This document shows positions 1 through 56,874 of a stretch of 58,113 bases of DNA, one piece after another. The notes under the pieces were generated by a model that saw only the letters and a list, made by a program, of their open reading frames with translations, had not been told where the DNA came from and ran no database searches. This DNA is from Myxococcota bacterium (GTDB lineage Bacteria; Myxococcota; SpSt-1050): positions 1 through 58,113 of the forward strand of contig JBMFOP010000004.1 of assembly GCA_049969675.1 (NCBI GenBank), read 5' to 3'. Position numbers and translations under genes: made by a program. How positions within the stretch are numbered: the first letter of the stretch is position 1; each line of letters begins with the position of its first letter.

Positions 1-276
1 GCAAAGGGATTTAATTGTTGAGGGAAATTAGTAGCAATAGGTTTCAGACGGGTTTTACCAAACAAGAATTTTTTGGAATGAATAAACCCTTTGAGACCTT
101 ACCGATGGTGCCTGATGTAGAGCAACTTTCTTTAAGGGGTATTTAAGTTGGACAGCATTTTAAGGGATTGTGAACAAAAGGGGGTAACCTGATTTTGAAG
201 ATGTGGATTTACCCATCCAGAATCCCTATTGTACAAATAGTCAACTTCTCAAATCAGATTATTCTGGACAGAAGTG
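1..276 (+). repeat. Intergenic repeat family, copy A (cut by the window edge)
   Basis: Aligns by eye along its whole length with 54056-54343 and with the reverse complement of 40478-40780. Shared blocks are GGAATGAATAAACCC, TTAAGTTGGACAGC, TACAAATAGTCAACTTCTCAAATCAGATTATTCTGGACAGAAGTG. Similarity stops right after GTG at 276. Confidence 0.8.
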
Positions 277-290
277 TTTCTAAATAGGGA

Positions 291-1094
291 CTATCTTTCT
301 TCTTTTTTCTTTATTCGCTTTGAGATATAAAATTGGAGGTATATTGCAACTGCTATTACAAATATTGAGATAAACTGGCTTGTTGATAGATAAGGCTCTA
401 TTACAAATCCACGAATCTTATCGCCTCTTAAAATCTCTAAAAATGAGCGCAGAATCGGATAGAGTGTCATATACATAAGGAGTACCTGCCCATCAAATCG
501 CTTCCTTGTCCTGAAGAGGACAAGTATTAGAAAGATAATTGCCTCTCCAAAGGATTCATAGAGTTGAACTGGATGACGGGGAACTCCACGGGGGGCGATA
601 GATTCTGGATGATTAAATACTACAGAAAAAATAAAGTCCTTTGCGCACTCTTTACCATAACAGCATCCAGCCGAGAAACAGCCGAGTCTCCCAAATGCGT
701 GTCCCAGCGAGACTGACGGAATCAGGATATCTGCAATCTTAAAGAATGGCAATCTGTGCTTGTGGGTATAATATAATGTAAATATAGATGCGCCAATAAA
801 TCCACCGTACCAGACCAATCCACCCTTGTATATCTTGATGAACATAGATGGGTCTGCCATATATTCATCCCAGCTCACTATGATATAGACAATTCTTGAA
901 CCAATCAGTCCCCATATAAGAATCCAGAATGTCAGGTCTGAGATAAGTTTTGGGTCAATGCCGAGTTTCTTTGCCTCCCGGGTGGCGAGCCAGAGCCCGA
1001 CGATAAATCCAAGGGCGATAAAAAATCCGTATGTATGAATGGCAAGCGGAAGATCTCCAATCTTAAAGGGTAATTCAATCAGTTTTGGGAACAT
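291..1094 (-). CDS. lgt: Prolipoprotein diacylglyceryl transferase (Lgt), compact paralog
   Basis: 267 aa polytopic membrane protein. Lgt-type motifs present: GGLVWYGGFIG, FGRLGCFSAGCCYG, HPVQLYES. Lies downstream of lspA and ileS. Confidence 0.9.
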   Translation of the reverse strand: MFPKLIELPFKIGDLPLAIHTYGFFIALGFIVGLWLATREAKKLGIDPKLISDLTFWILIWGLIGSRIVYIIVSWDEYMADPSMFIKIYKGGLVWYGGFIGASIFTLYYTHKHRLPFFKIADILIPSVSLGHAFGRLGCFSAGCCYGKECAKDFIFSVVFNHPESIAPRGVPRHPVQLYESFGEAIIFLILVLFRTRKRFDGQVLLMYMTLYPILRSFLEILRGDKIRGFVIEPYLSTSQFISIFVIAVAIYLQFYISKRIKKKEER

Positions 1095-2019
1095 TATTCT
1101 CTCCTTGTTTTCTTATTGATTGCCACAGTAATATTGCACCAGCGAGCAATACCAGACTTATTATCTGTGAGCTTGATAGAAGTCCAAAGAAGATCCCTCT
1201 ATTATCACTTCTAAAATATTCAATCACAAATCTAAAAATTGCATATGCTACTACAAAGTGAATAATTATCTGTCCATCATATCTTTTCCGTTTTCTCAAA
1301 AAGAGATAGAGATATAAAAAGAGGGCGAGTGAGAAGAATGATTCAAAGAGTTGTGTTGGAAGCAGGGCTGGCGTCTCAGTATGTATTGCCCTATCTACTA
1401 TCCCTGCATTTGCAAGTTCAGCAAAGGCAGCACTCCCTTTTGGAAAATGAATACCCATAAAGGAATCTGTCTCAACGCCAAAACAACATCCATTAAAGAA
1501 ACAGCCAAGTCTCCCGAAGAAAAGTCCAATAGCAGTTCCATATCCTATGGTATCCGATGTAAAGAGGATATTCATCTTTCTTCTCTTCATAAATATAAGG
1601 GCGGCAATTGTGCCCAGAATAAATCCTCCATAGTATGCGAGTCCACCTTTGAAGACATTAAATATCCTTGAGGGGTGCGAAATATAAAATTTGATTATCT
1701 TCTCACCTCTATGAAACTCCAGAACCACATCATCTCCCCCCTCTTTCTTTAATCTGGCCGGATCCGGTCCGCATTTATCTATCTTTTTGGAACAATATAC
1801 ATCGTGAGGGATATCTTCCGCCACCACATGCATAAGTCTTGAGCCTATCATCCCGAATATCACTATAACAATGGCAAGGTCAATAAAGTTCTTAACAGAT
1901 AGCCCATTTTTTCTGAATTCAATAACCCCGATAATTGTGGCAACTATAAATCCTATACTCAAAAAGAAAAAATATGAATGGACAGCAAAATCACCGATGT
2001 AAAACAGAATTGGCTTCAT
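1075..2019 (-). CDS. Lgt-family prolipoprotein diacylglyceryl transferase, paralog with an inserted soluble loop
   Basis: 314 aa with the same motif set (GGLAYYGGF, FGRLGCFFNGCCFG, LPTQLFES). A charged insert of about 50 aa (HDVYCSKKIDKCGPDPARLKKEGGDD...) follows the second TM helix. Overlaps the next lgt by 20 nt. Confidence 0.8.
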   Translation of the reverse strand: MKPILFYIGDFAVHSYFFFLSIGFIVATIIGVIEFRKNGLSVKNFIDLAIVIVIFGMIGSRLMHVVAEDIPHDVYCSKKIDKCGPDPARLKKEGGDDVVLEFHRGEKIIKFYISHPSRIFNVFKGGLAYYGGFILGTIAALIFMKRRKMNILFTSDTIGYGTAIGLFFGRLGCFFNGCCFGVETDSFMGIHFPKGSAAFAELANAGIVDRAIHTETPALLPTQLFESFFSLALFLYLYLFLRKRKRYDGQIIIHFVVAYAIFRFVIEYFRSDNRGIFFGLLSSSQIISLVLLAGAILLWQSIRKQGENNVPKTD

Positions 2020-2609: not shown

Positions 2610-5399
2610 TTATCTCTTATTCAGTGCACCTGCGCATCTGGGGCAGATATCATCTATAAATTCAGATGAAAATCTCCAGCATCTTGGGCACTTCTTTCCA
2701 TCAGCCTTTTTGAGATGCAGAGTACCACCATTATATATCTCAAGTGGTTTTCTCAAAAGGCTATCCTTAACCCTAACATTTATTCCAACATCTGAACAGA
2801 TAAAAAATTCCTTTAAGTCAATGTCCTTTACCATACGGTTGAATTCCGATAGATACTTCTCAGGGAGCTCAAGATAGACCGCCGCCTCAAGGGATTGTCC
2901 AATTATCTTCTGCCTTCTTATCTCCTCAAGCCCTTTTAAGATCTCATCCCGCAGACGAACTAAAAAGTCCCATCTGGATATCATCTCCACATCATATTTA
3001 TAACTCTCAAAATCAAAATTCTCCAGAAATACAGACGCCTCCTTCCCTTTATAAGGTGGTAAGAATCTATAGGCATCTTCCGAAGTAAATGAGATTATGG
3101 GTGCCAGCAGTTTAATAAGTTCCTTTGCAATTATAAATAATACTGTCTGAGCGGATCGCCTCTCCCTGCCGTCTTTCTTAAATGTATAGAGTCTGTCCTT
3201 GATGATATCAAAATATATTGCTGAGAGGTCAGTTGCACACATCTCTACTGCTGTATGATATACAGTAAAGAATTCAAAGTTTTTATACCCGTTTAGAATC
3301 TTCTCTGCCTTAAAGTAGAATCTGTTGAGTGCGAGTCTGTCAAGTTCCAGCAACTCCTCCTTCTTCAGCATATCTCTATCAGGGTCAAAATCAGAGATAT
3401 TTCCCAGTGCAAATCTGATGGTATTCCTGATCTTCCTGTAATTTTCGGACAAAAGTGTGAGCATATCGGTGGTAAATATGATATCAGATGTATAATCCAC
3501 ACTTGAGAATAAAAGCCTCAAAATATCTGCACCATAAGATGAGATTACCTCCTCCGGGGCAATGACATTACCGAGAGACTTGCTCATCTTCTTTGCATCT
3601 TTGTCAAGAATCAACCCGTGCGTCAGGACTGCCCTGTAAGGTGCCATATTTCTGTTGGCAACAGCCGTAATCAGAGATACCTGAAACCATCCCCTGTGCT
3701 GGTCTGTGGCTTCAAGATATAAGTCGCAGGGATAGGAGAGTTCGTCACTCTTCTCAAGTACTGCCCTCTGACTGACAGAGGAATCAAACCACACATCTAA
3801 AATATTCTCTTCCTTGAGAAAATCCGAGGATTGACACTTTGGACATTTCAAATTGGGAGGCAGAAAATCCTTTATATCCCTCTTGAACCAGCAATCAGAA
3901 CCTTCCCTGTATGTTAGTTCAATCGTCTTTTTAAAGACCTCTTCATTCAAAAAGGTATGAGAACAGGATTTACACTTAAGGGCCGGTATTGGGACACCCC
4001 AATATCTCTGTCGGGATAGGCACCAATCGGGTCTTATCTGCACCATATTGTAGATTCTATCTCTTCCCCACGGTGGTATCCACTTTACACCATCAATCTC
4101 GTTTAAAAGCCTCTCCCTTAGATTGGCGTGGTCAATTGATAAGAACCACTGCTCTGTAGCCCTGAAAATTATCGGATTCTTACATCTCCAGCAGTGGGGA
4201 TATGAATGCTCTACATTCTCACTCTTAATCAATGAACCATTCCTCTTCAATTCCTCAATTATCGGCTCATTCGCCAGATGAACCTTCATCCCTGCATAAT
4301 TTGGGACATCTTTTATAAATCTACCCTCTTCATCAACCGGTGTATAGACATTGAGTTTGTACCTTCTCCCTACCTCATAGTCCTCAGCACCGTGCCCTGG
4401 GGCGATATGCACCATCCCCGTTCCTGTATCGGTGGTGACAAAATCCGCTAAAATCACCACAGAATCCCTGTTATACATCGGATGTTTTAAGACAATACCC
4501 TCAAGATTATGACCCTTCATCTCCTTTATGACTTCTCCATCTATTCCGGTCTTCTCCTTTACCTGCTCAAATAAGACCTTCATAAGTACCAGGATCTCAC
4601 TCTTTGTATCAATAAAAATATAGTCCTCGTCTGGATGAAGTGCAACGGCAAGATTTGCCGGCAATGTCCATGGCGTGGTAGTCCATATCAAGAAGTAGAG
4701 TGGCTTACCAAAGTTGAGACCGAGTGAATCAGCCTTCTTATCTCTCTCCCTTACCGAAAACTTTACATATATTGAAGGAGAGGTGTGGTTGTGATACTCA
4801 ACCTCTGCATCTGCAAGTGCGGTCTTACACTCAGCACACCAGTGAATCGGCCTGAGCCCTCTATATAGATAGCCGTCTTTGAAGAGGTCAAATAATGCCT
4901 CAAGTGTCTTTGCCTCATAATCATAACTCATTGTCACATAGGGTTTTTCCCATTCACCTACACAACCGAGCCTCTTAAACTCCTCTCTCTGTATATTCAA
5001 AAACTCAGAGGCATATCTCCTGCACTCCTCTCTTATAGAAATCCCATCGTATATCTTCCCCTGCAACTTCTTAATGACGTTGTGTTCAATCGGCATCCCA
5101 TGACAGTCCCAGCCGGGTACAAATGGGGCGTCATAATTCATCATAAATCTACTCTTTATAATAAAATCTTTCAGAATCTTATTCAATGCAGTTCCGAGAT
5201 GTACATGCCCATTTGCATAAGGGGGTCCATCGTGTAGGACATACTTCTTTGAACCCTTCCTCCTCTCCCTCATCCTGTGATAGAGATCCATCTGATACCA
5301 CTCTGAGAGAATCTTTGGCTCAAGATTGACAAGATTTGCCTTCATAGAAAAATCTGTCTTCGGAAGCGATAAAGTCTCTTTGTATTCCACTGTAACCAT
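2610..5399 (-). CDS. ileS: Isoleucine--tRNA ligase
   Basis: 929 aa. HIGH-type motif (PPYANGHVHLGTALNK), KMSKS motif (KMSKSLGN) and a C-terminal CPRC...CPRC zinc knuckle. Confidence 0.97.
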   Translation of the reverse strand: MVTVEYKETLSLPKTDFSMKANLVNLEPKILSEWYQMDLYHRMRERRKGSKKYVLHDGPPYANGHVHLGTALNKILKDFIIKSRFMMNYDAPFVPGWDCHGMPIEHNVIKKLQGKIYDGISIREECRRYASEFLNIQREEFKRLGCVGEWEKPYVTMSYDYEAKTLEALFDLFKDGYLYRGLRPIHWCAECKTALADAEVEYHNHTSPSIYVKFSVRERDKKADSLGLNFGKPLYFLIWTTTPWTLPANLAVALHPDEDYIFIDTKSEILVLMKVLFEQVKEKTGIDGEVIKEMKGHNLEGIVLKHPMYNRDSVVILADFVTTDTGTGMVHIAPGHGAEDYEVGRRYKLNVYTPVDEEGRFIKDVPNYAGMKVHLANEPIIEELKRNGSLIKSENVEHSYPHCWRCKNPIIFRATEQWFLSIDHANLRERLLNEIDGVKWIPPWGRDRIYNMVQIRPDWCLSRQRYWGVPIPALKCKSCSHTFLNEEVFKKTIELTYREGSDCWFKRDIKDFLPPNLKCPKCQSSDFLKEENILDVWFDSSVSQRAVLEKSDELSYPCDLYLEATDQHRGWFQVSLITAVANRNMAPYRAVLTHGLILDKDAKKMSKSLGNVIAPEEVISSYGADILRLLFSSVDYTSDIIFTTDMLTLLSENYRKIRNTIRFALGNISDFDPDRDMLKKEELLELDRLALNRFYFKAEKILNGYKNFEFFTVYHTAVEMCATDLSAIYFDIIKDRLYTFKKDGRERRSAQTVLFIIAKELIKLLAPIISFTSEDAYRFLPPYKGKEASVFLENFDFESYKYDVEMISRWDFLVRLRDEILKGLEEIRRQKIIGQSLEAAVYLELPEKYLSEFNRMVKDIDLKEFFICSDVGINVRVKDSLLRKPLEIYNGGTLHLKKADGKKCPRCWRFSSEFIDDICPRCAGALNKR

Positions 5400-5559: not shown

Positions 5560-5676
5560 GTAGGTTCACAATAGGTGATAAATAGATATTTAAAAAATCA
5601 GGGAGATGGATTTCTCCCTTTTGAATAGATGTTTTTTGACTCTCAGATTTGCATTTCTTCTTTATGGGCTCACAGT
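5560..5676 (+). repeat. Degenerate fragment of the intergenic repeat family (copy G)
   Basis: GATGGATTTCTCCC ... TTGACTCTCAGATTTGCATTTCTTC resembles the GATGTGGATTTACCC ... TCAACTTCTCAAATCAGATTATTCTGG part of copy A. The match is weak. Confidence 0.3.
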
Positions 5677-9327: not shown

Positions 9328-10440
9328 TTATCTGGTAGAGTCATCTATACCAGATATTATATGGAACTCCACCCTCCTATTCAGCGCCCTGCCCTTCTCT
9401 GTCTTGTTAGATGCAATCGGGACATCAAAGGCATAACCTTTGGCAATCAATCTATCGGGCTCTATCCCTTCAATCTTGATTAGATGTTCTCTCACAGCAT
9501 TTGCCCTTGCCTCTGAAAGCCTTTTATTATATGCCCTACCGCCCACATTGTCTGTATGTCCCTGCACCTCTACCTTAAATTGTGGATTGTCTTTTAAGAC
9601 CTGTGCTACCTGATGGAGGAGTTCGTAAGAGTCTTTTAATATCTTTGACTTACCGGTTGCAAAGTGCACCTGTTCCTTGATCTCAATCTGTTTGGACTCC
9701 TTATTAACTACGACAAGGGTGTATTTTTTTGGACAGCCCTTCTCCTCGGGTATACCAGCCTCCTTCGGGCACTGGTCATCCGGGTCACATATACCATCGC
9801 CATCTGTATCTGGACAACCCTGACAGGCTGGTATTCCGGGGATTGTTGGGCATTTATCCTTATCATCAACAATCCCATCGCCATCTGTATCTGGACAACC
9901 CTCAAATTGCGGAGGTCCAGGGACATCCGGGCATTTATCCTTATCATCAGTTATCCCATCGCCGTCTCTATCAGGTGGTGGACAACCATTGAAATCAACT
10001 GTCCCATAATCATTGGGGCATTTATCTTCACAATCCATTATCCCATCATTGTCTGTATCAATTTTACAGAGATCTATCTCCTTCTTCGCTATTACAACTG
10101 GCTTTGGAGGTTCCTTTACGAGGACCTTAACGGGCATACACAACTCGGGATTTTTATTTACAATATCAAGTGCCTTTGCAGTATAAATCTTTGCCTCGGC
10201 TATATGTTTATCAGCCATCACAGAATTTCCCTCTGAAGATTCATCTGATGCAAATCTGAGCTCCGATTCAGCAATGGCGGTCTCCATAGGGGCACACTTC
10301 TTTGAACCCTTCTCTATAGCTGTATTCAGGTCCTTCTGAAGGGCCGCAACCTGAGCATTTATGACACTGCTGGTTGTACAGCTAAACCATATAAGAGCCG
10401 GCAAAGAAAGAAGAAGAACTATATTCAATCTCTTCATCAT
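9328..10440 (-). CDS. OmpA-family lipoprotein with thrombospondin type-3 (Ca-binding) repeats
   Basis: Lipobox WFSC. Repeated DTDGDGI.D..D.CP units. C-terminal OmpA peptidoglycan-binding domain (GHTDNVG...YNKRLSEARANAV...NRRVEF). Confidence 0.9.
   Translation of the reverse strand: MMKRLNIVLLLSLPALIWFSCTTSSVINAQVAALQKDLNTAIEKGSKKCAPMETAIAESELRFASDESSEGNSVMADKHIAEAKIYTAKALDIVNKNPELCMPVKVLVKEPPKPVVIAKKEIDLCKIDTDNDGIMDCEDKCPNDYGTVDFNGCPPPDRDGDGITDDKDKCPDVPGPPQFEGCPDTDGDGIVDDKDKCPTIPGIPACQGCPDTDGDGICDPDDQCPKEAGIPEEKGCPKKYTLVVVNKESKQIEIKEQVHFATGKSKILKDSYELLHQVAQVLKDNPQFKVEVQGHTDNVGGRAYNKRLSEARANAVREHLIKIEGIEPDRLIAKGYAFDVPIASNKTEKGRALNRRVEFHIISGIDDSTR
9794..9949 (-). repeat. Intragenic DNA repeats encoding TSP3 units
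   Basis: CCATCGCCATCTGTATCTGGACAACCCT occurs at 9794-9821 and 9875-9902. GGGCATTTATCCTTATCATCA occurs at 9848-9868 and 9929-9949. The period is 81 bp. Confidence 0.9.
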
Positions 10441-11906: not shown

Positions 11907-12134
11907 TTTATATGCTCCTTAAGTAGTGCAATTATCAAATTATATTAGCAAAAGCAACCATAATGTCAAGGATTTATGCAATCCTCATCACAAATTTAGA
12001 ACAACCTCTCCATTCTACTTTATTGGCAGGCAAATCTGGAAAGTCTAAAGGTTTAATTTAGAGAACACAGGAATTTTTCCATAAAGAAAGGTTAACAATC
12101 ACATCTGTCTAAAATAATTTTTGGTGAAAGATCC

Positions 12135-12169
12135 TACGAGGCTACGCTTCGCTATGCCATTTCGCCTAC
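12135..12169 (+). repeat. GC-rich ~35-nt motif, copy 1
   Basis: TACGAGGCTACGCTTCGCTATGCCATTTCGCCTAC. Related copies lie at 12412-12445 and, inverted, at 43794-43823. Confidence 0.7.
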
Positions 12170-12411
12170 ACGGTACGAGCCGAGCCTAAACGGCACGAGC
12201 CCTTACGGGGATGAGCCTAAACGGCACTTGAGGTTTTATGTTATTTTTATTGTGCTGTGCTTACGCAGATGCACAAAAGAATCATCCTGCCTCACGCTGT
12301 TCGGCAGATGATTCGCACTGCATAAATTTTGTGAGTCTTAAACAAAAATTGAAAATGAATCAATATTCGTCAATATTACAGATTTAATCAATTAAAATTT
12401 ATGCATTGCAG

Positions 12412-12445
12412 TACGAGGCTTCGCTCTGCTCCGCTATTTCGCCTA
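12412..12445 (+). repeat. GC-rich ~35-nt motif, copy 2
   Basis: TACGAGGCTTCGCTCTGCTCCGCTATTTCGCCTA. It is followed by the perfect hairpin AACATCAATT-agtgt-AATTGATGTT. Confidence 0.7.
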
Positions 12446-12494
12446 ACATCAATTAGTGTAATTGATGTTTATATTCCATAGTTAGTTTCACCTG

Positions 12495-12662
12495 AACTGG
12501 ATGATTCTTTGTATTGATTGGGATTAGTAATCTCTACAAAATCATTTTTTTTATTTGAAAAACTCTGGATATATTGAAAATCTTCATAATGACCTCTCAC
12601 TTTTTGTGTTATATTGAGTTAAATTCAGACCTTTGTCTTTGTCAAATCTTTTCAGATGTTAA
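12495..12662 (-). repeat. Intergenic repeat family, head fragment (copy F1)
   Basis: 12500-12662 aligns closely with 40735-40900, for example TTTGTCAAATCTTTTCAGATGTTAAC against TTTGTCAAATCTTCTCAGCAGGTTAAC. The tail half is replaced by the GC-rich island. Confidence 0.7.
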
Positions 12663-12724
12663 CTACTTAAAATCTCATAATTTTAATAACTATGTTGCTA
12701 TGGGAATGTTAATGTTAAATTTTT

Positions 12725-12991
12725 GATATGGAACCCTTTGTTTTTTTTGTTATCTCAGTAAATAGGGGTTCCTTACCCATCCCAAATTCACTTAGAGGCG
12801 ATGTGATGGCTTTAGCATTTCTTCTGTTCAATCCCTAAGCTATCCTCAATCCCCATAGGTGTCGGTATAATAAATCTTATCCCATCTCTAATTTGGCATA
12901 GCAGAAAGCAAAATATTTGTAAAATCTTCTGCATATTTTGCGTAGAAGTTACGATTAAAGGATCTACATCAGATTATTTTGGATAGAAGTG
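12725..12991 (+). repeat. Intergenic repeat family, copy F2 (diverged body, clear tail)
   Basis: The tail ATCAGATTATTTTGGATAGAAGTG matches ATCAGATTATTCTGGACAGAAGTG of copy A. It lies head-to-head with F1, about 110 bp upstream of nuoA. Confidence 0.55.
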
Positions 12992-29287: not shown

Positions 29288-29450
29288 CACATCTGTCCAC
29301 AATAAATTTTAATTTAAGTCTCAGAGATATTGAAATTCATATGAATATATGTCGTAGTAGTTTCTACTAATTCTACAAATATTATTAGACAAGACACTAC
29401 CTGACTTTTCTAACTGGGGTTTATTATACAAAATTTTGTGGGAATGGCCC
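29288..29450 (-). repeat. Degenerate copy of the intergenic repeat family (copy I)
   Basis: The tail in minus orientation, CACATCTGTCCACAATAAATT...TCTCAGAGA, matches CACATCTGTCCAAAATA at 53865 and the reverse complement of the copy A tail. The body is poorly conserved. Confidence 0.35.
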
Positions 29451-39289: not shown

Positions 39290-39874
39290 TTATCTTGATT
39301 TGAGTTCTAAGAGTACGAGTTTGGCGATGGCTTTTAATGTCTCAAATACACCGATACCCTTTGAAGCCACTGCCTCAAAGTCGGGGACATTCCTGTAATT
39401 GAGTGCCTTTCTGAGCTCGGCAACAGGCATCACATTTGGAAGGTCTCTCTTGTTGTACTGGATAACAAATGGCATTTTGTCAAGGTCAAATCCATGTTCT
39501 TTAAGGTTGGTCTTTAGATTATCAAGTGATTCAAGATTTGCCTCCATCCTCTCAATCTGTGAATCCGCAACAAATACCACCCCATCAGCACCTTTTAATA
39601 TCAGCTTTCTGGAGGCGTCATAAAATACCTGCCCCGGGACCGTGTAGAGATGGAATCTGGTCTTAAAGCCCTTTATATCTCCAAGAGATAGAGGGAGGAA
39701 ATCAAAGAAGAGTGTCCTCTCTGTCTCTGTAGCAAGAGATATCAGCTTCCCCTTCGCGGCTGGATTGGTCTTTGCATAGATATATTGAAGATTGGTCGTC
39801 TTTCCACAAAGTCCTGGCCCATAATAGACAATCTTACAATTTATTTCTCTGGCAGAATAATTTATAAAAGACAT
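39290..39874 (-). CDS. mglA: Ras-like polarity/motility GTPase MglA
   Basis: [16 protein letters not shown]-loop, [31 protein letters not shown]. Confidence 0.92.
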
Positions 39875-39890
39875 ATATTAGTACCCTAAA

Positions 39891-40376
39891 TTAGAAATCC
39901 CCGAAGAGTTTATCAATATCGCCCTCTGTAATGTCAATGGCGCCCTGCGAATCTTTCTCCTTTTCGGTCTTGGAGAAAATTGCGTCAAATATCTTATTGA
40001 GCTCCTCTGTGGACTTCTTAACCTTTAATCTTACAAGACCCTGATTGGTTCTCTTGTCAAAGATTACCACCAGAATCATTCTTGTACCTATCAGTGATAT
40101 ATGAACTGAATCATTATCCCCTTCGTGGAATAACACTGAAAATTCCTTCTCTCCCAGTAGCTTGGCAAGCCCTCCAGTAGCCGCGACATTTCCAGCCGTA
40201 AGAGAGGCTAAGGATGTGGTATCCATTCTTGAGACATCTCCAGAAACTGCAATCAACTGCCCATTCTTATCAACTATGAAGACGATCTTTGAATTGGATT
40301 CTTTGTATAGTCGGTCACATATAAGCTTTATAGCCTCATATTCCTTTTCGTGTAAAACCAACTGGGGATTAAACAT
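39891..40376 (-). CDS. mglB: Roadblock/LC7 family protein MglB (MglA GAP)
   Basis: 161 aa Roadblock-like fold pattern (IVDKNGQLIA..GD...D...LASLTAGNVAA). Lies immediately upstream of mglA, as in the mglBA operon. Confidence 0.8.
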   Translation of the reverse strand: MFNPQLVLHEKEYEAIKLICDRLYKESNSKIVFIVDKNGQLIAVSGDVSRMDTTSLASLTAGNVAATGGLAKLLGEKEFSVLFHEGDNDSVHISLIGTRMILVVIFDKRTNQGLVRLKVKKSTEELNKIFDAIFSKTEKEKDSQGAIDITEGDIDKLFGDF

Positions 40377-40477
40377 ATAAATACCTTATCAATAAGGGTG
40401 AAACTTCATAAACTAATTATCAGATTGCCAGATTGAATTCAAGTAAAAAATTAACTTTTTCAACAATTCTAAAATAT

Positions 40478-40897
40478 CACTGCTGTCCAAAACAATCTTC
40501 TTTGAGAATTTAACTATTTGTAAAATAAGAATTTTAGATGGGTAAACACATATTTTAAAAGTCAGGTTAGCCCAATGTCCTTTATAATCAATTGAAAGGC
40601 TGTCCAACTTAAGTAAGGGCTAATAATCATTAGCCCCTACAATAGCTACATCTGGCACAACAGGTAAGGTTTCATAGGGTTTATTTATCCATTCCCCCAA
40701 CTCCCTGTATGGTTAATCTATAACCTAAATTGAGCGATTTTTTGTATTGCTGAGGATTGGTAACTTCTACAGAATCAATTTTTTGCCTGAAATTCTCTCT
40801 GGATGTGTTAAAGGACTTTATAATAATCTCCCACCTGTTGGGTGATATTGGGCTAAACCCCAGACTGTGTTTTTTGTCAAATCTTCTCAGCAGGTTA
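40478..40897 (-). repeat. Intergenic repeat family, full-length reference copy B
   Basis: Its reverse complement aligns with copy A (1-276) and copy D (53971-54343), and its head aligns with F1. It contains the hairpin GGGCTAAT-aatc-ATTAGCCC at 40617-40637. The tail CACTGCTGTCCAAAAC starts at 40478. Confidence 0.85.
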
Positions 40898-41220
40898 ACT
40901 CAACAGGTGGATTTTTTCATCTAAAAGATCGATTAGATTAGGTATAAGAAAACTCATAGGTGTTTTGTCTAATAATAAATGTTATAATTAACCCGAATAA
41001 GGGTTTTCATTATATGTCCATTTAAGCGGCATTGATTTTTGGTCATTGTAGGACTTAATGATTTCACCAGATCTTCAATGTTCTGAATGTCTCTTCATCT
41101 CTCTATAATTCTATCTATCTCCGAATTATAAAATTTCACTTCTGAATGTATTTGTGTAATTTGCTTTGCCAACCACTGGGTATTTTGTTTCACCAACTAA
41201 AAATGACAATTTATTCTCTT

Positions 41221-41350
41221 ATTGTAGATTGTTGTGAGAAATGACAGGGTGTTTATTCATAGGAAGCCTCCTTACAGGGTTCTCTTTGAAAAATAATCTT
41301 ACCCTATCAAGATTTTCTTATCTAAAAAAAAATTATTCTGGACAGATGTT
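41221..41350 (+). repeat. Internally deleted short copy of the intergenic repeat (copy H)
   Basis: GATTGTTGTGAGAAATGACAG resembles AATTGTTGAGGGAAATTAGTAG of copy A. The tail is AATTATTCTGGACAGATGTT. It ends 30 bp upstream of the ATG at 41380 and is inverted relative to copy B. Confidence 0.5.
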
Positions 41351-41379
41351 GTCCATTAAAAAATGGTTGAACTTAATAT

Positions 41380-41985
41380 ATGGATAGAATATTATCCATA
41401 AATGTGTATTTTGCCAGAGGGATGTTTATAAGGTTTACACTTCTTATATTTTACCTCTCTTCTGTAATATTCCACAGGAGGGTCAATGAATTTATTGATA
41501 TCTTTTATAAAAAATATTCTTTTGAGAGCACGAATAGGTTCTTTATTTTCTCTCTTATAATTCCGCTAATAGTGATAATTATCCTCTTCTTTTATAAAGC
41601 TCTGAGGAGCGATAAGAGATCTCTAATAATAACACTCTCTCTGGTAATCACCCCTCTATTATTGTTCTATTATATCTTATTTGTATCCAATGTTGAGGCA
41701 GTGCACTACTTTCAATATGCAATAATAGCAGTTATGATTTTTAAAATCTCTGATAACCTGTTATATTCCTTTGTCGCCTCTACAATTCTTGGGGTTGTAG
41801 ATGAGGCATATCAATATTATGTACTTTATGCTGGTGTAAAAGGTCTCTATCTGGACTACAACGATATGCTGTTTAATGTGCATGGGGCGATAATAGGGCT
41901 TGTCTTTTATTTAATAGTTACAGAGAATATTTTTAATAGTAGAGTGAGGTCTGGTATTGTGGCAAGATTGGGGGATTCTTTGTAG
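41380..41985 (+). CDS. VanZ-like family membrane protein
   Basis: About 5 TM helices. The pattern VEAVHYFQYA ... GVVDEAYQYY ... YNDMLFNVHGAIIG is consistent with VanZ-like motifs. The start codon is uncertain. Confidence 0.5.
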   Translation: MDRILSINVYFARGMFIRFTLLIFYLSSVIFHRRVNEFIDIFYKKYSFESTNRFFIFSLIIPLIVIIILFFYKALRSDKRSLIITLSLVITPLLLFYYILFVSNVEAVHYFQYAIIAVMIFKISDNLLYSFVASTILGVVDEAYQYYVLYAGVKGLYLDYNDMLFNVHGAIIGLVFYLIVTENIFNSRVRSGIVARLGDSL

Positions 41986-42075
41986 ATTCTGGTATTTTTG
42001 AGCTGGTTTGAAATTACTTGACCAGATATATTTATTTGGCTATGTAAAAAGGGACTTTTTTGAAAGGAGTTTAAA

Positions 42076-42465
42076 ATGAATATCCCGAGAGACCTTCTTT
42101 ACACAAAAGACCACGAATGGGCAAGGGTTGAAGGAAATGTCGCAACTATTGGAATAACAGACCATGCACAGAAGTTGTTAGGAGATATAGTATTCCTTGA
42201 GATATCTGAAGTAGGGACATCTGCAAATAAGGGTGAAAAGATTGGGACCATTGAATCTGTAAAGGCGGCATCAGATATATTTTCTCCATTGTCCGGAAAG
42301 ATTATTGAGGTGAATACTGAACTCTCAGCCGCACCCGATACAGTAAATAAAGACCCTTATGGTGCTGCGTGGATGGCAAAGATAGAGATATCAAATCCCA
42401 AAGAGATGGATGAATTGTTAAAGGCTGATGACTATGCAAGGCTAATTGAGGAGGATAAAAATTAA
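42076..42465 (+). CDS. gcvH: Glycine cleavage system protein H
   Basis: Lipoyl-lysine motif IESVKAASDIFSPLSG and N-terminal YTKDHEW. Confidence 0.95.
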   Translation: MNIPRDLLYTKDHEWARVEGNVATIGITDHAQKLLGDIVFLEISEVGTSANKGEKIGTIESVKAASDIFSPLSGKIIEVNTELSAAPDTVNKDPYGAAWMAKIEISNPKEMDELLKADDYARLIEEDKN

Positions 42466-43793
42466 TGAAATATCTTCCACATTCAGATAGAGATATTAAG
42501 GAGATGCTCGGTGTCCTGAATATCTCTACAATTGATTCACTCTTTGACCCTATACCTGCTGAATATAGGCTCAAGAATCTATTGAATATCCCATCCGGCC
42601 TTGATGAGAGAGCACTTGATGAGTTAATTAAATCTATTGCCGATTCAAATACTGCAACTTCATACACATTATTTGCTGGCGGTGGCATTTATAATCATTA
42701 CATCCCCAAGATTATAGACTCACTGATAATGAGGCAGGAATTTTATACTGCATATACACCTTATCAGCCTGAGATAAGTCAGGGGACATTACAGGCAATA
42801 TTTGAGTTTCAGACGATGGTGGCATCAATTCTTGGAGTGGATGTGGCGAATGCCTCTATGTATGATGGCTCTACTGCATCTGCAGAGGCAGTCCTTATGG
42901 CAAGGAGAAGGGCGTCAAATCCTAAAAAGGTCGTTTTGAGTTCAGCCCTGCACCCTGAATACAGAGCGGTGATTAAGACATATCTCAGACACCTCGGAGA
43001 TGAGATTGTTGAACTCCCTTATGATGTGAAGAGTGGCAGGACAATTTTTGATGAGAAGTTGATTGATGGTGCTTATGGTGTCGTTCTCCAGTATCCAAAT
43101 TTCTTTGGTGTCATTGAAGATTTAGAGTCCTTTTCCAGAATCCTCTCTGAAAAGAAGATTCCATTTATATCGGTTACTACTGAACCACTTTCTCTTAATC
43201 TGATTAAATCGCCCGGTTCACTCGGGGTGAGCATAGCAGTCGCTGAAGGTCAATCATTTGGCATCCCGATGTCTGCTGGTGGTCCGACTGTTGGATGGTT
43301 TGGAGCCAGAAAGGATCTGGTCAGAAGTATGCCGGGTAGACTTGTCGGTGAGACGGTAGATAGGCATGGAGAAAGGGTATTTGTACTCACGCTCTCTACC
43401 CGTGAACAGCATATCCGCAGAGAGAAGGCAACATCAAATATATGTACAAATTCTGGATTGAATGCACTTATAAATGCAATTTATATGGCATATAATGGAG
43501 CCTCTGGCCTTAAAGCCCTTTCTATAGAAAACCATAAGAAGGCAGAGAGTCTGAAGGAGATGCTAAGGCGTGAAGGTGTAAATACTATATTTGTTGGTGA
43601 TACATTCAATGAGTTTGTAATCTCTGTAAAAGATGCCAAAAAGTTTTATAAGAAAGCGCTTGAAAAGAAGATTATTCCCGGAATATTACTCTCCCGATTC
43701 TATCCTGAGCTAAAAGATGGATTGCTGGTGACTGTTACCGAACAGAATAGAGAGGAAGATTTTGCAAAGTTTTTGGATGTTTTGAGGGACTGA
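42465..43793 (+). CDS. gcvPA: Glycine dehydrogenase (decarboxylating) subunit 1
   Basis: 442 aa with motifs YTPYQPEISQGTLQAIFEFQTM, ANASMYDG and REQHIRREKATSNICTN. Confidence 0.93.
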   Translation: MKYLPHSDRDIKEMLGVLNISTIDSLFDPIPAEYRLKNLLNIPSGLDERALDELIKSIADSNTATSYTLFAGGGIYNHYIPKIIDSLIMRQEFYTAYTPYQPEISQGTLQAIFEFQTMVASILGVDVANASMYDGSTASAEAVLMARRRASNPKKVVLSSALHPEYRAVIKTYLRHLGDEIVELPYDVKSGRTIFDEKLIDGAYGVVLQYPNFFGVIEDLESFSRILSEKKIPFISVTTEPLSLNLIKSPGSLGVSIAVAEGQSFGIPMSAGGPTVGWFGARKDLVRSMPGRLVGETVDRHGERVFVLTLSTREQHIRREKATSNICTNSGLNALINAIYMAYNGASGLKALSIENHKKAESLKEMLRREGVNTIFVGDTFNEFVISVKDAKKFYKKALEKKIIPGILLSRFYPELKDGLLVTVTEQNREEDFAKFLDVLRD

Positions 43794-46693: not shown

Positions 46694-46965
46694 CACCGCT
46701 GTCCAGAATAATCTGCTTTGAGAAGTTGACATTGAAATTTTCAAAAAAAATTGAATCTGTTCAGGTAATAAATGAGACACTTAAAGTCAGAGATGGATTT
46801 ACTCTATTTGTAAGGTATCTCAGAGACATTGAAATATGTCCTTATATTGAAAGAGATTCTGGTCAAACAAAAAGAGATTTGTAGTTAAACAACTCTTTAA
46901 CCGGAGTGTTTTTATTTAAAACATTCCACTCAATACAAAGAATCTATCAATTTAGGTAGAATTTA
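46694..46965 (-). repeat. Intergenic repeat family, diverged copy C
   Basis: The tail CACCGCTGTCCAGAATAATCTGCTTTGAGAAGTTGAC is the reverse complement of GTCAACTTCTCAAATCAGATTATTCTGGACAGAAGTG in copy A, with 4 mismatches. The body keeps GGAATG..AAATAAA, and the rest has diverged. Confidence 0.65.
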
Positions 46966-47024
46966 TTTGAAATGTAAGAATAATTGTGGCATAGAAAAAG
47001 TGACCCGGGTAGGTTACATAATTT

Positions 47025-53805: not shown

Positions 53806-53924
53806 CAAATCTGTCCAATATAATAATTTTCGTATGAAAGCCTCGGTATGGTAAAGATTATTTTCACATCTGTCCAAAATATATTTTTTTGATATGGGAG
53901 CCTCGGTAGGGTGGGTTTATTTTG
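53806..53924 (-). repeat. Two tandem ~59-bp units related to the repeat-family tail
   Basis: CAAATCTGTCCAATATAATAATTTTCGTATGAAAGCCTCGGTATGG is followed by CACATCTGTCCAAAATATATTTTTTTGATATGGGAGCCTCGGTAGGG. Confidence 0.75.
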
Positions 53925-53970
53925 TCTATCAAAAAACGCTGAAATGAGGCTCCCTATGAGCAAGTATAGC

Positions 53971-54343
53971 AGCATCTTTGAAAAGATTTGTAAATGGTGT
54001 AAGCAAATTCTAAAAGATATTACAGGGCAGTATATTAGACAAATGCTGATAAAAAGCAAAGTGATTTTAGTTGTTGAGTGCAATAAGTAGCAATATATTT
54101 CTAATTGGTTTACCATACAAGAATATTTTGGAATGAATAAATCCCAAGAGATACCATCAATTGTGCCAGATGTAGCAATTGTAGGGGCTAATGATTATTA
54201 GCCCTTACTTAAGTTGAACAGCATTTTAATTGATAGTGAAGAGAAAGCGGGAAATCTGATTTTGAAAATGTGAATTTATCAGTTTAGAGTACTTATTTAC
54301 AGATAGTTGATTTCTCAACTTAGGTTATTTTGAGATGCAATGT
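53971..54343 (+). repeat. Intergenic repeat family, full-length copy D
   Basis: Collinear with copy A and with the reverse complement of copy B. Contains the hairpin GGGCTAAT-gatt-ATTAGCCC at 54184-54204. The tail has partly diverged (TTCTCAACTTAGGTTATTTTGAGATGCAATG). Confidence 0.85.
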
Positions 54344-54378
54344 TTACGATTGATGTTGAATCAGGACGGGTGTAAAGT

Positions 54379-55911
54379 CTAAGTATTGCCTTTGTTTTGC
54401 AGATTGTATTTTATTAGAAAGATTCCAGATATAAATAAGAGGAGGTAACCCGCAATTAGGATCCAGTGGAGATTCTCTGTAGCACTTATATCCCACGGCT
54501 GGAACATAGAGCCAGATGGTAGAGGTGAATGTATTAATCCAACCATTGTCAGTAAAATCGTTGTCAGGATGATGATTGAGAACCCTCTAATATTTCTATC
54601 AATAATATAGGTCAGCATCGCTCCCCATAGAAGAGATGTTAAAATAAATCCATGCCCTATCATCATTAAAATCTTATGTTCGGATTTTATATTTTCTGGA
54701 ATACTTATATTATTTCCGGATGAACCGATTATTGTATCATAATTGAGCATACCCAGATATCCAATGATTGGGAGTATTGAAAATATTAAAGCCTCAATAT
54801 GCCTTTTATCCGTCTCAATAAATGCCTGTTTAATAATCTCTATCCCAATAAACAACAATATAGGAGTTACCGCTGCCTCTGGAATAATTTCCACGAGTGC
54901 CCCGGTAATACCAAAGATAGAGCCAATCCCGATTGTAAGGGCTGTCAGAATCGTATATCCACCTGATGCACCCATAGATTTGTATGCAGGATGTCCGATA
55001 TAAGGCGTACTCTGTGCAACTCCACCGAAGATCCCAGCAATTAGTGTGGATATCGCTTCAGTGAGTAATATATCTCTCGTGCGATACTCATCACCGGCAA
55101 GCCTTGCGCTCTCCGTTACATTGATTCCTCCTACGATGGTCAATAATCCAAAAGGGATTGCAATTGATATATATTTGATTGCAAGGGGCATACCTTCAAT
55201 AAAGTCGAGTGTGGGTGATGGGAGGGCTATTTCTATTGAGAAATGTATTGGTTTTATTTGATAGAGATTGAAGATTGCCGAGAGATAATAAGTTGTTGTT
55301 GCCAGTAATACAGCGAGAAATGCGGCCGGGATATTAAATGGGATCCTGTACCTCCCTACAAAGGCAAAAAGAATAATTGCCATTGAAATAAATCCGACCA
55401 TAGGGTATGCAAATATCTTCGTTATAGGGAAGAAGCCGAGTAATGCCAATCCAATTCCTGCAATAGGCCCGAGTAGAGCCGCGGTGGGTAAAATTCGTTT
55501 TATATAATCACCTAAAAATGAAAAAATTACCTTTACCACTCCCATAATTACCATTATTGCCATTGCCGTTTTATAAGTAAGCATTGCATCCTTTATCTCA
55601 AGATATAGTGGGCCTATGACCATAATAGCCATCCCGATTGTAGAAGGTGTGTCCAGCCCAAGCGGCATCGCTGTAATATCTTCTCTATTGGTCTTCTTTG
55701 CCAGTTTGTATGCCAGATATGAATATACGAGGTCTCCAAATAGCACACCTATAGCAGTTCCGGGTATCATCTTCCCTATCACAATCTCTTTGGGCATACC
55801 GAATCCACCTATAAGAATGCCTCCTAAAACAACCAGATTTAAGAGGTTGTCAAGCAATAACCCGAAGAAGGCATTGATGTCCCCTATCTTAAAAATTTTA
55901 TATTTGCTCAT
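54379..55911 (-). CDS. Polytopic permease, possibly of the NCS2/AzgA-like (xanthine/uracil permease) superfamily
   Basis: 510 aa with about 13-14 TM helices. The family call is tentative and rests on overall organisation plus the segment STPYIGHPAYKSMGASGGYTILTA. Confidence 0.4.
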   Translation of the reverse strand: MSKYKIFKIGDINAFFGLLLDNLLNLVVLGGILIGGFGMPKEIVIGKMIPGTAIGVLFGDLVYSYLAYKLAKKTNREDITAMPLGLDTPSTIGMAIMVIGPLYLEIKDAMLTYKTAMAIMVIMGVVKVIFSFLGDYIKRILPTAALLGPIAGIGLALLGFFPITKIFAYPMVGFISMAIILFAFVGRYRIPFNIPAAFLAVLLATTTYYLSAIFNLYQIKPIHFSIEIALPSPTLDFIEGMPLAIKYISIAIPFGLLTIVGGINVTESARLAGDEYRTRDILLTEAISTLIAGIFGGVAQSTPYIGHPAYKSMGASGGYTILTALTIGIGSIFGITGALVEIIPEAAVTPILLFIGIEIIKQAFIETDKRHIEALIFSILPIIGYLGMLNYDTIIGSSGNNISIPENIKSEHKILMMIGHGFILTSLLWGAMLTYIIDRNIRGFSIIILTTILLTMVGLIHSPLPSGSMFQPWDISATENLHWILIAGYLLLFISGIFLIKYNLQNKGNT

Positions 55912-56121: not shown

Positions 56122-56181
56122 CATCTCCTCCCTTGAAATCTTTTTACCCCCAAACCCTTATGCTGGTAAAGATTAGATATT

Positions 56182-56300
56182 CACTGTTATAGAAAACAAT
56201 CTGCTTTGAAAAGAAGTCAATTGTTTATAAAATAAGGACTAAAAATCCTTTGCACTTATAATTTCTATGTCAGGCACCATTTGAAATATCTCAAATTGCC
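56182..56300 (-). repeat. Degenerate copy of the intergenic repeat family (copy E)
   Basis: CACTGTTATAGAAAACAATCTGCTTTGAAAAGAAGTCAATTGTTTATAAAATAAGGA parallels CACTGCTGTCCAAAACAATCTTCTTTGAGAATTTAACTATTTGTAAAATAAGAA of copy B. Confidence 0.45.
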
Positions 56301-56874
56301 CTCAATGAATAAATCCTATATTCCTCTCTATGCCCTCTATCCATTACTGCTTTATTGAACTCATTTTTTGAAAAATTTATCTGTAAAATAACATTTTTAT
56401 CAACCAGAGGTTTTCTCTCACTAAATACAAGTTTGTTTCGCAAACCGAGAGTTAGTTTAGAGATACTATTAAACCTATATCTTAATCAGTGGGTCAACTA
56501 TTTTTTGATTCGCCAGCTTATAGTTTGTTAAGTAATACAGCTCAGGGGTGTTTAGATAGGTGTCTTAGACTAACCTGTTCGCCTCTGTGGCGTCCACCTC
56601 CTCTGTGAAGGGAAATTACCCCGTCAGTCCGAAGGACCTGCCACCCCTTCTATGAAGGGGAATTGAGAGAGGATTTGTAATTTGCAATTTGAACTGAACT
56701 ATAATCTTCCCAATCGCCCGTGCAATAATAAAAACTTATCTTAGCCCCATCATATATCCTTATCTCTCTTGTTTTAATAAACATCAGAAGTTGAATATAT
56801 ACCAAATACCCTTTTATTCTATTCACAGATGATATGATATATCAAATCAGAAATTAATCAATAAATAATTAATC

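Follow-up and report, generated by a model that had tools for sequence, protein, structure and literature searches.

Intergenic repeats in a Myxococcota contig are probably MITE-like deletion derivatives of an IS4-family insertion sequence

Introduction

A 58,113-nucleotide stretch of DNA from a Myxococcota bacterium (contig JBMFOP010000004.1 of assembly GCA_049969675.1), hereafter the window, contains at 40478-40897 a noncoding sequence that recurs in several other intergenic regions and ends in a sharply bounded tail. What is this repeat? An earlier note, made from the letters alone, had proposed either a MITE-like non-autonomous element or a multicopy structured RNA whose conservation stops at a transposon boundary. 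MITEs arise by internal deletion of a parent element and copying by a transposase supplied in trans. Here we trace the ends of the repeats to an intact insertion sequence, map each window copy onto it, and weigh the resulting account against its alternatives.

The window is otherwise ordinary chromosome, with lgt, lspA, ileS, the nuo operon, queCDE, gcvHP, a clpC-like gene and tRNA-Phe. Near its start lie two tandem paralogs of lgt, the prolipoprotein diacylglyceryl transferase gene (291-1094 and 1075-2019, minus strand, overlapping by 20 nt), followed by lspA and ileS (2016-2600 and 2610-5399). Duplicated lgt is uncommon. An Arf-like small GTPase gene adjoins a Roadblock/LC7 protein gene (39290-39874 and 39891-40376, minus strand); together they form an MglA/MglB-like pair immediately downstream of the repeat at 40478. 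A set of 81-87-nt tandem repeats at 9762-10060 falls inside an OmpA-family gene (9328-10440) and corresponds to thrombospondin type 3 repeats; these are therefore coding repeats, separate from the family described here.

Results

Pairwise BLAST with the minus strand of 40400-40960, which contains the repeat at 40478-40897 (copy B), matched copy D (54161-54332; 80% over 174 nt, E = 5e-37), copy A (78-276; 72% over 211 nt, E = 1e-25) and copy E (12490-12664; 73% over 179 nt, E about 3e-20 to 8e-21), along with short stretches confined to the tail at 46694-46730 (copy C) and 56181-56236 (copy F). An all-against-all comparison of intergenic regions agreed with these results and joined copy A to copy C (46694-46730; 97% over 32 nt, E = 1.5e-10), and nhmmer matched copy F (56181-56293) to the family with E-values of 2e-4 and 5.5e-4, weaker than the other members, as for copy C. 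The repeat family proposed earlier is thus real, with B firmly tied to D, A and E and less firmly to C and F. At least seven copies or fragments lie within the 58-kb window, and none of the copies contains a conserved ORF. The all-against-all comparison also related 41257-41349 to 53866-53959 (74% over 96 nt, E = 2e-9). Since these two segments adjoin the tails opposite B and D, B and D each form one arm of a longer unit. This relationship partly bears out the degenerate copy that had been suggested at 41221-41350. Other suggested copies fared less evenly: 5560-5676 did not belong (nhmmer E = 1.2), 12725-12991 and 29288-29450 were each reduced to a 24-nt terminal repeat (12968-12991 and 29288-29311), and 46694-46965 proved to be a related, more decayed copy with an extent of 46694-46970.

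About 10 copies of the 20-24-nt tail, ATTATTYTGGACAGNNGTG, are spread over the window, and all of them lie between genes. Matches to AGATTRTTYTGGACAG with up to 3 mismatches numbered 16, compared with 2.6 ± 1.6 in shuffled sequence. With a 24-nt position weight matrix, 8 window sites scored at least 30 bits, these being the same sites from which the matrix was built, and 2 more were weaker; no other window site exceeded 17 bits, and shuffles, for which only scores above 8 bits were counted, gave 1-7 sites each. Every tail in the window points outward, toward the nearest gene, and in three intergenic regions two tails face outward as a pair (12100/12991, 40478/41350 and 53865/54343). The partner ends at 41350, 53865 and 12100 indicate that the copy boundaries drawn earlier were too short: B is part of 40478-41350 and D is part of 53865-54343. 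The abrupt loss of similarity that had been remarked on is genuine, falling right after GTG, and is explained by the end of the tail being a transposon terminus.

That the tail is a terminus is apparent from its occurrences elsewhere. The longer family-1 tail, TTCTCAAANNAGATTRTTYTGGACAG, had no exact-pattern match in the genome or metagenome contig collections; a scan of metagenome contigs with ARATTRTTYTGGACAGNNGTG yielded at least 120 loci. Among the matches listed, 118 of 120 carry T at the Y position (TTTT) and 83 of 120 carry CA at NN, a bias that speaks against chance matches. In each listed match similarity stops immediately 3' of GTG, and the flanking sequences come from both GC-rich and AT-rich organisms. 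In 37 of the listed matches a contig or locus starts no more than 150 nt away, a pattern to be expected if the many copies of an element break up assemblies. The 22-nt end motif, kept across many environments, offers a simple search key for this group of insertion sequences and its short derivatives.

Whole elements of 1356-1420 bp with matching inverted ends were present at no fewer than 16 loci among the matches listed. Their left end reads CACnnnTGTCCAAAATA... and their right end ...TATTTTGGACAG(C/T)AGTG (the ends can also be given as CACnnnTGTCCAAAATA ... TATTTTGGACAGCAGTG). Perfect 9-bp target-site duplications flank elements at loci L116, L142, L156 and L208, and 8 of 9 positions match at L130. 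In 10 of the 16 full-element loci an ORF of about 400 codons runs in the orientation of the tail and stops 87-158 nt before the right end. Both of the ORFs tested contain the Pfam domains DUF4372 and DDE_Tnp_1 and score 262 and 253 bits against the NCBIfam model NF033592, "IS4 family transposase" (cutoff 115); relatives on plasmids, about 40% identical, carry annotations as IS4 family or ISAbe18-like transposases. An autonomous element with the same ends, which the earlier note had advised looking for in the genome, exists in metagenomes, as a DDE-transposase element of about 1.36-1.42 kb. The IS4Sa subgroup is described as 1150-1750 bp long, with ends CA------T and direct repeats of 8-10 bp (Table 1 of De Palmenaer, Siguier and Mahillon 2008, PMC2266710), and the full-length relatives fall within these ranges in size, ends and 9-bp duplication. 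Judged by this table of end signatures, and not by transposase phylogeny or ISfinder, the parent element appears most like the IS4Sa subgroup. The ends of the window copies read CACATCTGTCC... and CACTGCTGTCC..., as do those of the full-length relatives, and show the 5'-CA......T signature.

Shorter derivatives of the same insertion sequence, 174-376 bp long, occur at L208, L130, L108, L177 and L146; the one at L208 is 174 bp and has a perfect 9-bp duplication. At four further loci (L185, around 210-249, and L104, L154 and L161) the left and right terminal repeats abut (CACTGCTGTCCAAAATC|AGATTGTTTTGGACAGCAGTG) in a perfect palindrome of about 38 bp, which could be either a minimal element made of terminal repeats only or a remnant resembling a circle junction. 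Directly 3' of the right end, 65 of 118 copies among the listed loci L093-L212 have an A, which hints at a target-site preference of this group. A relationship to Tc1/IS630 elements was also considered. The end of the element resembles the Tc1 terminal inverted repeat; the relationship was rejected on the lack of a TA duplication and on the transposase itself, which is of the IS4 type.

Set against the plan of the intact element, the window contains the following features (IRL-type ends, CACATCTGTCC... as in the full-length element at L103, can be told from IRR-type ends, ...CAGATTRTTYTGGACAG).

1-276, plus strand: copy A, cut by the window start; N-terminal remnant about 1-62, C-terminal remnant and 3' untranslated region 63-252, IRR-type repeat 253-276
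12100-12991, plus strand: X2, a composite copy of 892 bp; IRL-type repeat 12100-12123, IRR-type repeat 12968-12991
29288-29311, minus strand when read as tail: solo IRL-type repeat (30.6 bits)
40478-41350, minus strand: X1, 873 bp, containing copy B; IRR 40478-40501, 3' untranslated region and C-terminal remnant to about 40709, N-terminal remnant (the "head half") about 40720-40897, 5' region and IRL 41233-41350
46694-46970, minus strand: copy C; IRR 46694-46717 (33.9 bits), C-terminal transposase remnant 46805-46963
53806-53864, plus strand: partial tandem IRL and start of 5' region directly left of X3 (16.7 bits at 53806-53829)
53865-54343, plus strand: X3, a complete 479-bp deletion derivative containing copy D; IRL 53865-53888, 5' untranslated region, transposase start codon 53956, N-terminal remnant to about 54100, then deletion junction, C-terminal remnant, 3' untranslated region and a decayed IRR ending at 54343
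56181-56293, minus strand: copy F, a decayed fragment of the right end, located 59 nt downstream of tRNA-Phe and of uncertain extent to the right (13.4 bits)

Both ends are kept by three copies (53865-54343, 40478-41350 and 12100-12991), and in all three an IRL-type end is correctly paired with an IRR-type end. The ends of X2 score 30.6 and 31.6 bits on the weight matrix, and its interior holds copy E (12488-12664), an N-terminal coding fragment in inverted orientation. X1 has the design of X3 interrupted by about 335 nt of DNA of no assigned origin (40898-41232). The partial tandem end left of X3 reads CAAATCTGTCCAATATAAT...GCCTCGGTATGG beside CACATCTGTCCAAAATATA...GCCTCGGTAGGG. When partner ends were sought, none was significant for 29288-29311 (shuffle p = 0.19), copy C or copy F, including candidates picked out by eye. 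The positions flanking X1, X2 and X3 match at 4, 5 and 3 of 9 sites, respectively, which is the chance level for a target-site duplication.

Several smaller repeats lie in or near these copies. GC-rich short repeats inside X2 (12135-12168, 12412-12445 and also 12170-12230) include TACGAGGCT.CGCT...CGCTATTTCGCCTA and two copies of CGAGCCTAAACGGCAC. Sequence of the TACGAGGCT.CGCT...CGCTATTTCGCCTA kind resembles GAGCCTCGGTAGGG from the insertion-sequence 5' region of X3, and these may be duplicated fragments of that region. A second small repeat relates 40947-40990 to 29368-29411 in inverted orientation (80% over 46 nt) and thereby links the insert of about 335 nt in X1 with the intergenic region of the solo terminal repeat at 29288. 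To the right of copy F, the AT-rich intergenic region contains a GC-rich patch at 56540-56680 (cctcctctgtgaagggaaattaccccgtcagtccgaaggacctgccaccccttctatgaagggg) with imperfect direct repeats; no Rfam family matched this patch at the gathering threshold.

An nhmmer profile built from the 16 full-length elements (1403 positions) located the window copies on the parent. Positions 1203-1403 aligned with window 63-276 in copy A (E = 2e-16) and positions 1201-1403 with 40709-40478 in copy B (E = 1e-14), and the last 50 positions (1354-1403) aligned with 46743-46694 in copy C (E = 1.6e-3). At the opposite end of the element, positions 1-145 aligned with 53865-53980 in X3 (E = 7e-4, or 3e-5 in a targeted search) and positions 3-149 with 41348-41233 in X1 (E = 0.05 in a targeted search). 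For X2 the profile gave two marginal matches, of positions 1-39 with 12100-12139 and of positions 1377-1403 with 12965-12991. Direct comparison with individual elements agreed with this placement: copy A is 74% identical to the right end at L192 over 206 nt (E = 3.5e-31), and the full-length element at L103, over its positions 1-125, shares 71% identity with the left part of X3 (E = 4e-8). X1 had no blastn match among plasmids and phages.

The interior of the copies carries traces of the transposase gene. A blastx search of the whole window at E = 1e-2 returned nothing, and the coding remnants appeared only in targeted, lenient searches, in which the individual matches were weak (E from 1e-4 to 0.4, small database). 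In X3, MSKYSSIFEKICK corresponds to the transposase start MNKYNNIFGQILK (residues 1-13) and KKQSDFSC*VQ*VAIYF to residues 27-47. The "head" of copy D (CATCTTTGAAAAGATTTGTAAATGG) translates as SIFEKICKW, which lies inside MSKYSSIFEKICK. In copy B, GGAATGGATAAATAAACCC encodes EWINKP, near the transposase C-terminus, and YRELGEWINKPYETLPVVP, which includes EWINKP, matches residues 360-378 (YRDLWQWIDDPFETLPQIP; 58%, E = 1e-4). Copy A contributes MNKPFETLPMVP (residues 367-395) and GKLVAIGFR (residues 66-78). The block TTAAGTTGGACAGC covers the ..GQH.. residues immediately before the stop codon. Copy C matched residues 318-374 with an E-value of 0.005 in one search and 0.15 in another, and copy F has a possible VMDRGH remnant further in (residues 175-203, E = 0.14). 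Between the two ends, the N-terminal and C-terminal matches follow one another as in the intact transposase gene, in order and in orientation. The segment common to A and D upstream of the junction corresponds to residues of about 27-78, and X3 as a whole holds residues 1 to about 78, a deletion, and residues from about 355 to the end.

Judging from these translated matches, the conserved blocks of the repeat are decayed transposase codons. The "head", which had been taken for an imperfect inverted copy of the tail, is instead decayed N-terminal coding region by the same matches. Its TTGACA box, earlier paired with a weak -10-like hexamer, sits inside this coding remnant, and promoter-like sites numbered 7 against 5.7 ± 2.8 expected.

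The absence of transposase, TnpB, IscB and integrase genes that had been noted by eye was confirmed, with none found among 40 ORFs scanned against Pfam. The 58-kb window contains no full-length element or transposase gene, only decayed remnants, and the window copies are therefore derivatives and not autonomous members of the IS4 family. Three of them combine short length, noncoding sequence and both ends of the parent insertion sequence: X3 (479 bp), X1 (873 bp) and X2 (892 bp). A, B and D are collinear across one and the same junction between N-terminal and C-terminal remnants, which suggests descent from a single deletion derivative of about 480 bp that multiplied. The MITE-like reading of the earlier note thus stands in its essentials (noncoding, internally deleted derivatives of an insertion sequence, with the tail as terminal inverted repeat), while its account of the head, the extents and the conserved blocks has been replaced.

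The nearest relatives of this genome are uncultured "Deltaproteobacteria bacterium" MAGs, in which the permease gene is 72-78% and the VanZ-like gene 50-58% identical at the protein level. About 96 kb of sequence from these relatives (L081-L090) contains neither the repeat nor the tail, which fits a lineage-specific burst. One of them, L086, shares queD-queE-queC with the window but not the next gene, and synteny was too poor for a clean empty-site comparison. The same species is also represented by a second, highly fragmented MAG, GCA_049699215.1 (99.8-99.9% identity), which provided two contigs of about 1 kb (L091 and L092) that are collinear with window 41436-42625 and 54300-55350. These contigs end 86 nt outside the 41350 end of X1 and 43 nt inside D, and the repeats may contribute to the fragmentation of this short-read assembly. 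The VanZ-like ORF listed at 41380-41985 (plus strand) starts at 41380 in the window; the database copy (P0121, 182 aa) runs to its contig start. Because that contig aligns only from window 41436, P0121 is truncated at the N-terminus and cannot serve to place the start codon.

We considered whether the family could be a multicopy structured RNA, with omega-RNA, reRNA or HEARO-like scaffolds ending at a transposon boundary. The sharp 3' boundary and the many copies would suit such a family, as would a short helix between the tail (ATTCTGGA) and TCCAGAAT about 40 nt upstream, for which A, B and D show some compensatory changes. However, consensus folding was weak: RNAalifold on A, B and D gave -14.6 kcal/mol over 260 columns with a positive covariation term, that is, a penalty; the opposite strand of this alignment folded no better, and 42 homologous right ends from many organisms yielded no consensus structure (-0.78 kcal/mol). 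Single-sequence folding was unremarkable (z-scores of -1.3 and -2.1). Rfam recognized only tRNA-Phe at the gathering threshold across the window and nothing relevant at E-values up to 10 in 40380-41380. The conserved blocks are accounted for as decayed codons, and the intact elements encode a DDE transposase and not TnpB or IscB. We therefore regard the RNA reading as highly implausible. A closer competitor holds that each copy was once a full-length insertion sequence that lost its own middle, so that no derivative was ever amplified. The copies are indeed old, heterogeneous and 20-30% divergent, X1 and X2 are interrupted or rearranged, and F, with its VMDRGH match, may keep a different internal piece. 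Against this, one N-terminal/C-terminal junction is shared by the collinear copies A, B and D, and the profile match begins at about 1201-1203 in both A and B; three separate deletions at one point are unlikely, and so, in our estimate, is this account of the family.

Two further readings assign the repeats a function. In one, the paired ends are invertons, intergenic segments flanked by inverted repeats that a site-specific recombinase flips to switch promoters. Three intergenic regions do carry the motif of about 20 nt in outward inverted pairs (12100/12991, 40478/41350 and 53865/54343), and two of the three lie between divergent genes. Identity within a pair, at 16-17 of 22-23 positions, is no better than between loci, however, and the repeat of D is badly decayed. 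Elsewhere the motif forms the end of a DDE transposon flanked by 9-bp duplications, the window has no recombinase gene, and the second, conspecific assembly (99.9% identity) runs collinear with the window across the end of D over the 43 nt that can be compared. Inversion is highly unlikely on this evidence. In the other, the copies are domesticated and kept as promoters, untranslated regions or terminators of neighboring genes. They occupy the greater part of several intergenic regions and lie close to gene starts (30-194 nt) and to gene ends (15-59 nt), and in two copies a TGGACA in the terminal repeat is followed 17 nt downstream by a -10-like hexamer. Yet promoter-like and terminator-like sites show no excess over shuffled sequence, the outward -35/-10 arrangement differs from copy to copy, the elements are missing from relatives that share the gene order (for example at queC and its neighbors in L086), and the sequence decay looks neutral. 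Domestication is accordingly very unlikely. Outward hybrid promoters formed from the TGGACA of the terminal repeat were dropped as inconsistent among copies. Tn7-like multiple binding sites, REP/REPIN elements and integron attC sites were likewise set aside on sequence grounds.

Discussion

The repeats are probably dead or dying non-autonomous copies of an IS4-family element, one deletion derivative of which was amplified. Intact, such an element measures about 1.4 kb, has a left end CAC..CTGTCCAAAATA and a right end TATTTTGGACAG..GTG, encodes one DDE transposase of about 400 aa, and makes 9-bp target duplications. In this lineage one copy would have lost the middle of the transposase gene, roughly codons 80-355, leaving an element of about 480 bp with both ends intact. 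The shortened element could then have been copied to many intergenic sites, presumably with transposase supplied in trans by a full-length copy; mobilization of this sort is suggested by the behavior of MITEs and of IS4-family cassettes such as MIC231. The copies would subsequently have decayed to 70-80% mutual identity, some of them becoming interrupted or rearranged, and those in the window are presumably inactive today. The insert of about 335 nt in X1 and the inverted fragment in X2 make the picture of one deletion and many copies an idealization.

With about one copy per 8 kb, the density of these elements in the window invites a bolder idea, that this low-GC uncultured "deltaproteobacterial" lineage experienced an unusually large burst of IS4-derived MITEs and that some copies now serve as promoter, leader or terminator modules (of nuoA, the MglB-like gene and an HD-GYP gene); we rate it as quite improbable. 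The repeats instead look like a new MITE-like member of a well-known kind, ordinary bacterial junk DNA rather than a new family of RNAs, and they change nothing known about how such elements work. Their value is for annotation: these stretches should be labeled IS4-family remnants or MITEs and not candidate noncoding RNAs or guide-RNA scaffolds.

The likeness to known systems is closest for the full-length relatives, which resemble the IS4 family in their size of about 1.4 kb, their single DDE transposase and its YREK-type motif (YKDRWQIELFFKALKQ). The window copies differ from that family in being internally deleted, decayed and only 0.3-0.9 kb long, with no transposase gene and no recognizable target duplication. 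Their likeness to omega-RNA, reRNA and HEARO elements is superficial and amounts to conservation that stops exactly at a transposon end; the parent belongs to the DDE IS4 class and not to IS200/IS605, and TnpB and IscB are absent, as are any Rfam match and any conserved structure. Bacterial MITEs too are short, noncoding, multi-copy and intergenic, keep both ends of a parent insertion sequence around an internal deletion, and presumably move with the help of the parent's transposase acting in trans. The window derivative of about 480 bp departs from other MITEs in retaining recognizable N-terminal and C-terminal coding remnants. Within the IS4 family itself, the MIC231 cassettes are non-autonomous elements derived from IS231 (PMC6199540; PMC3852290); they carry passenger genes, whereas the window copies do not.
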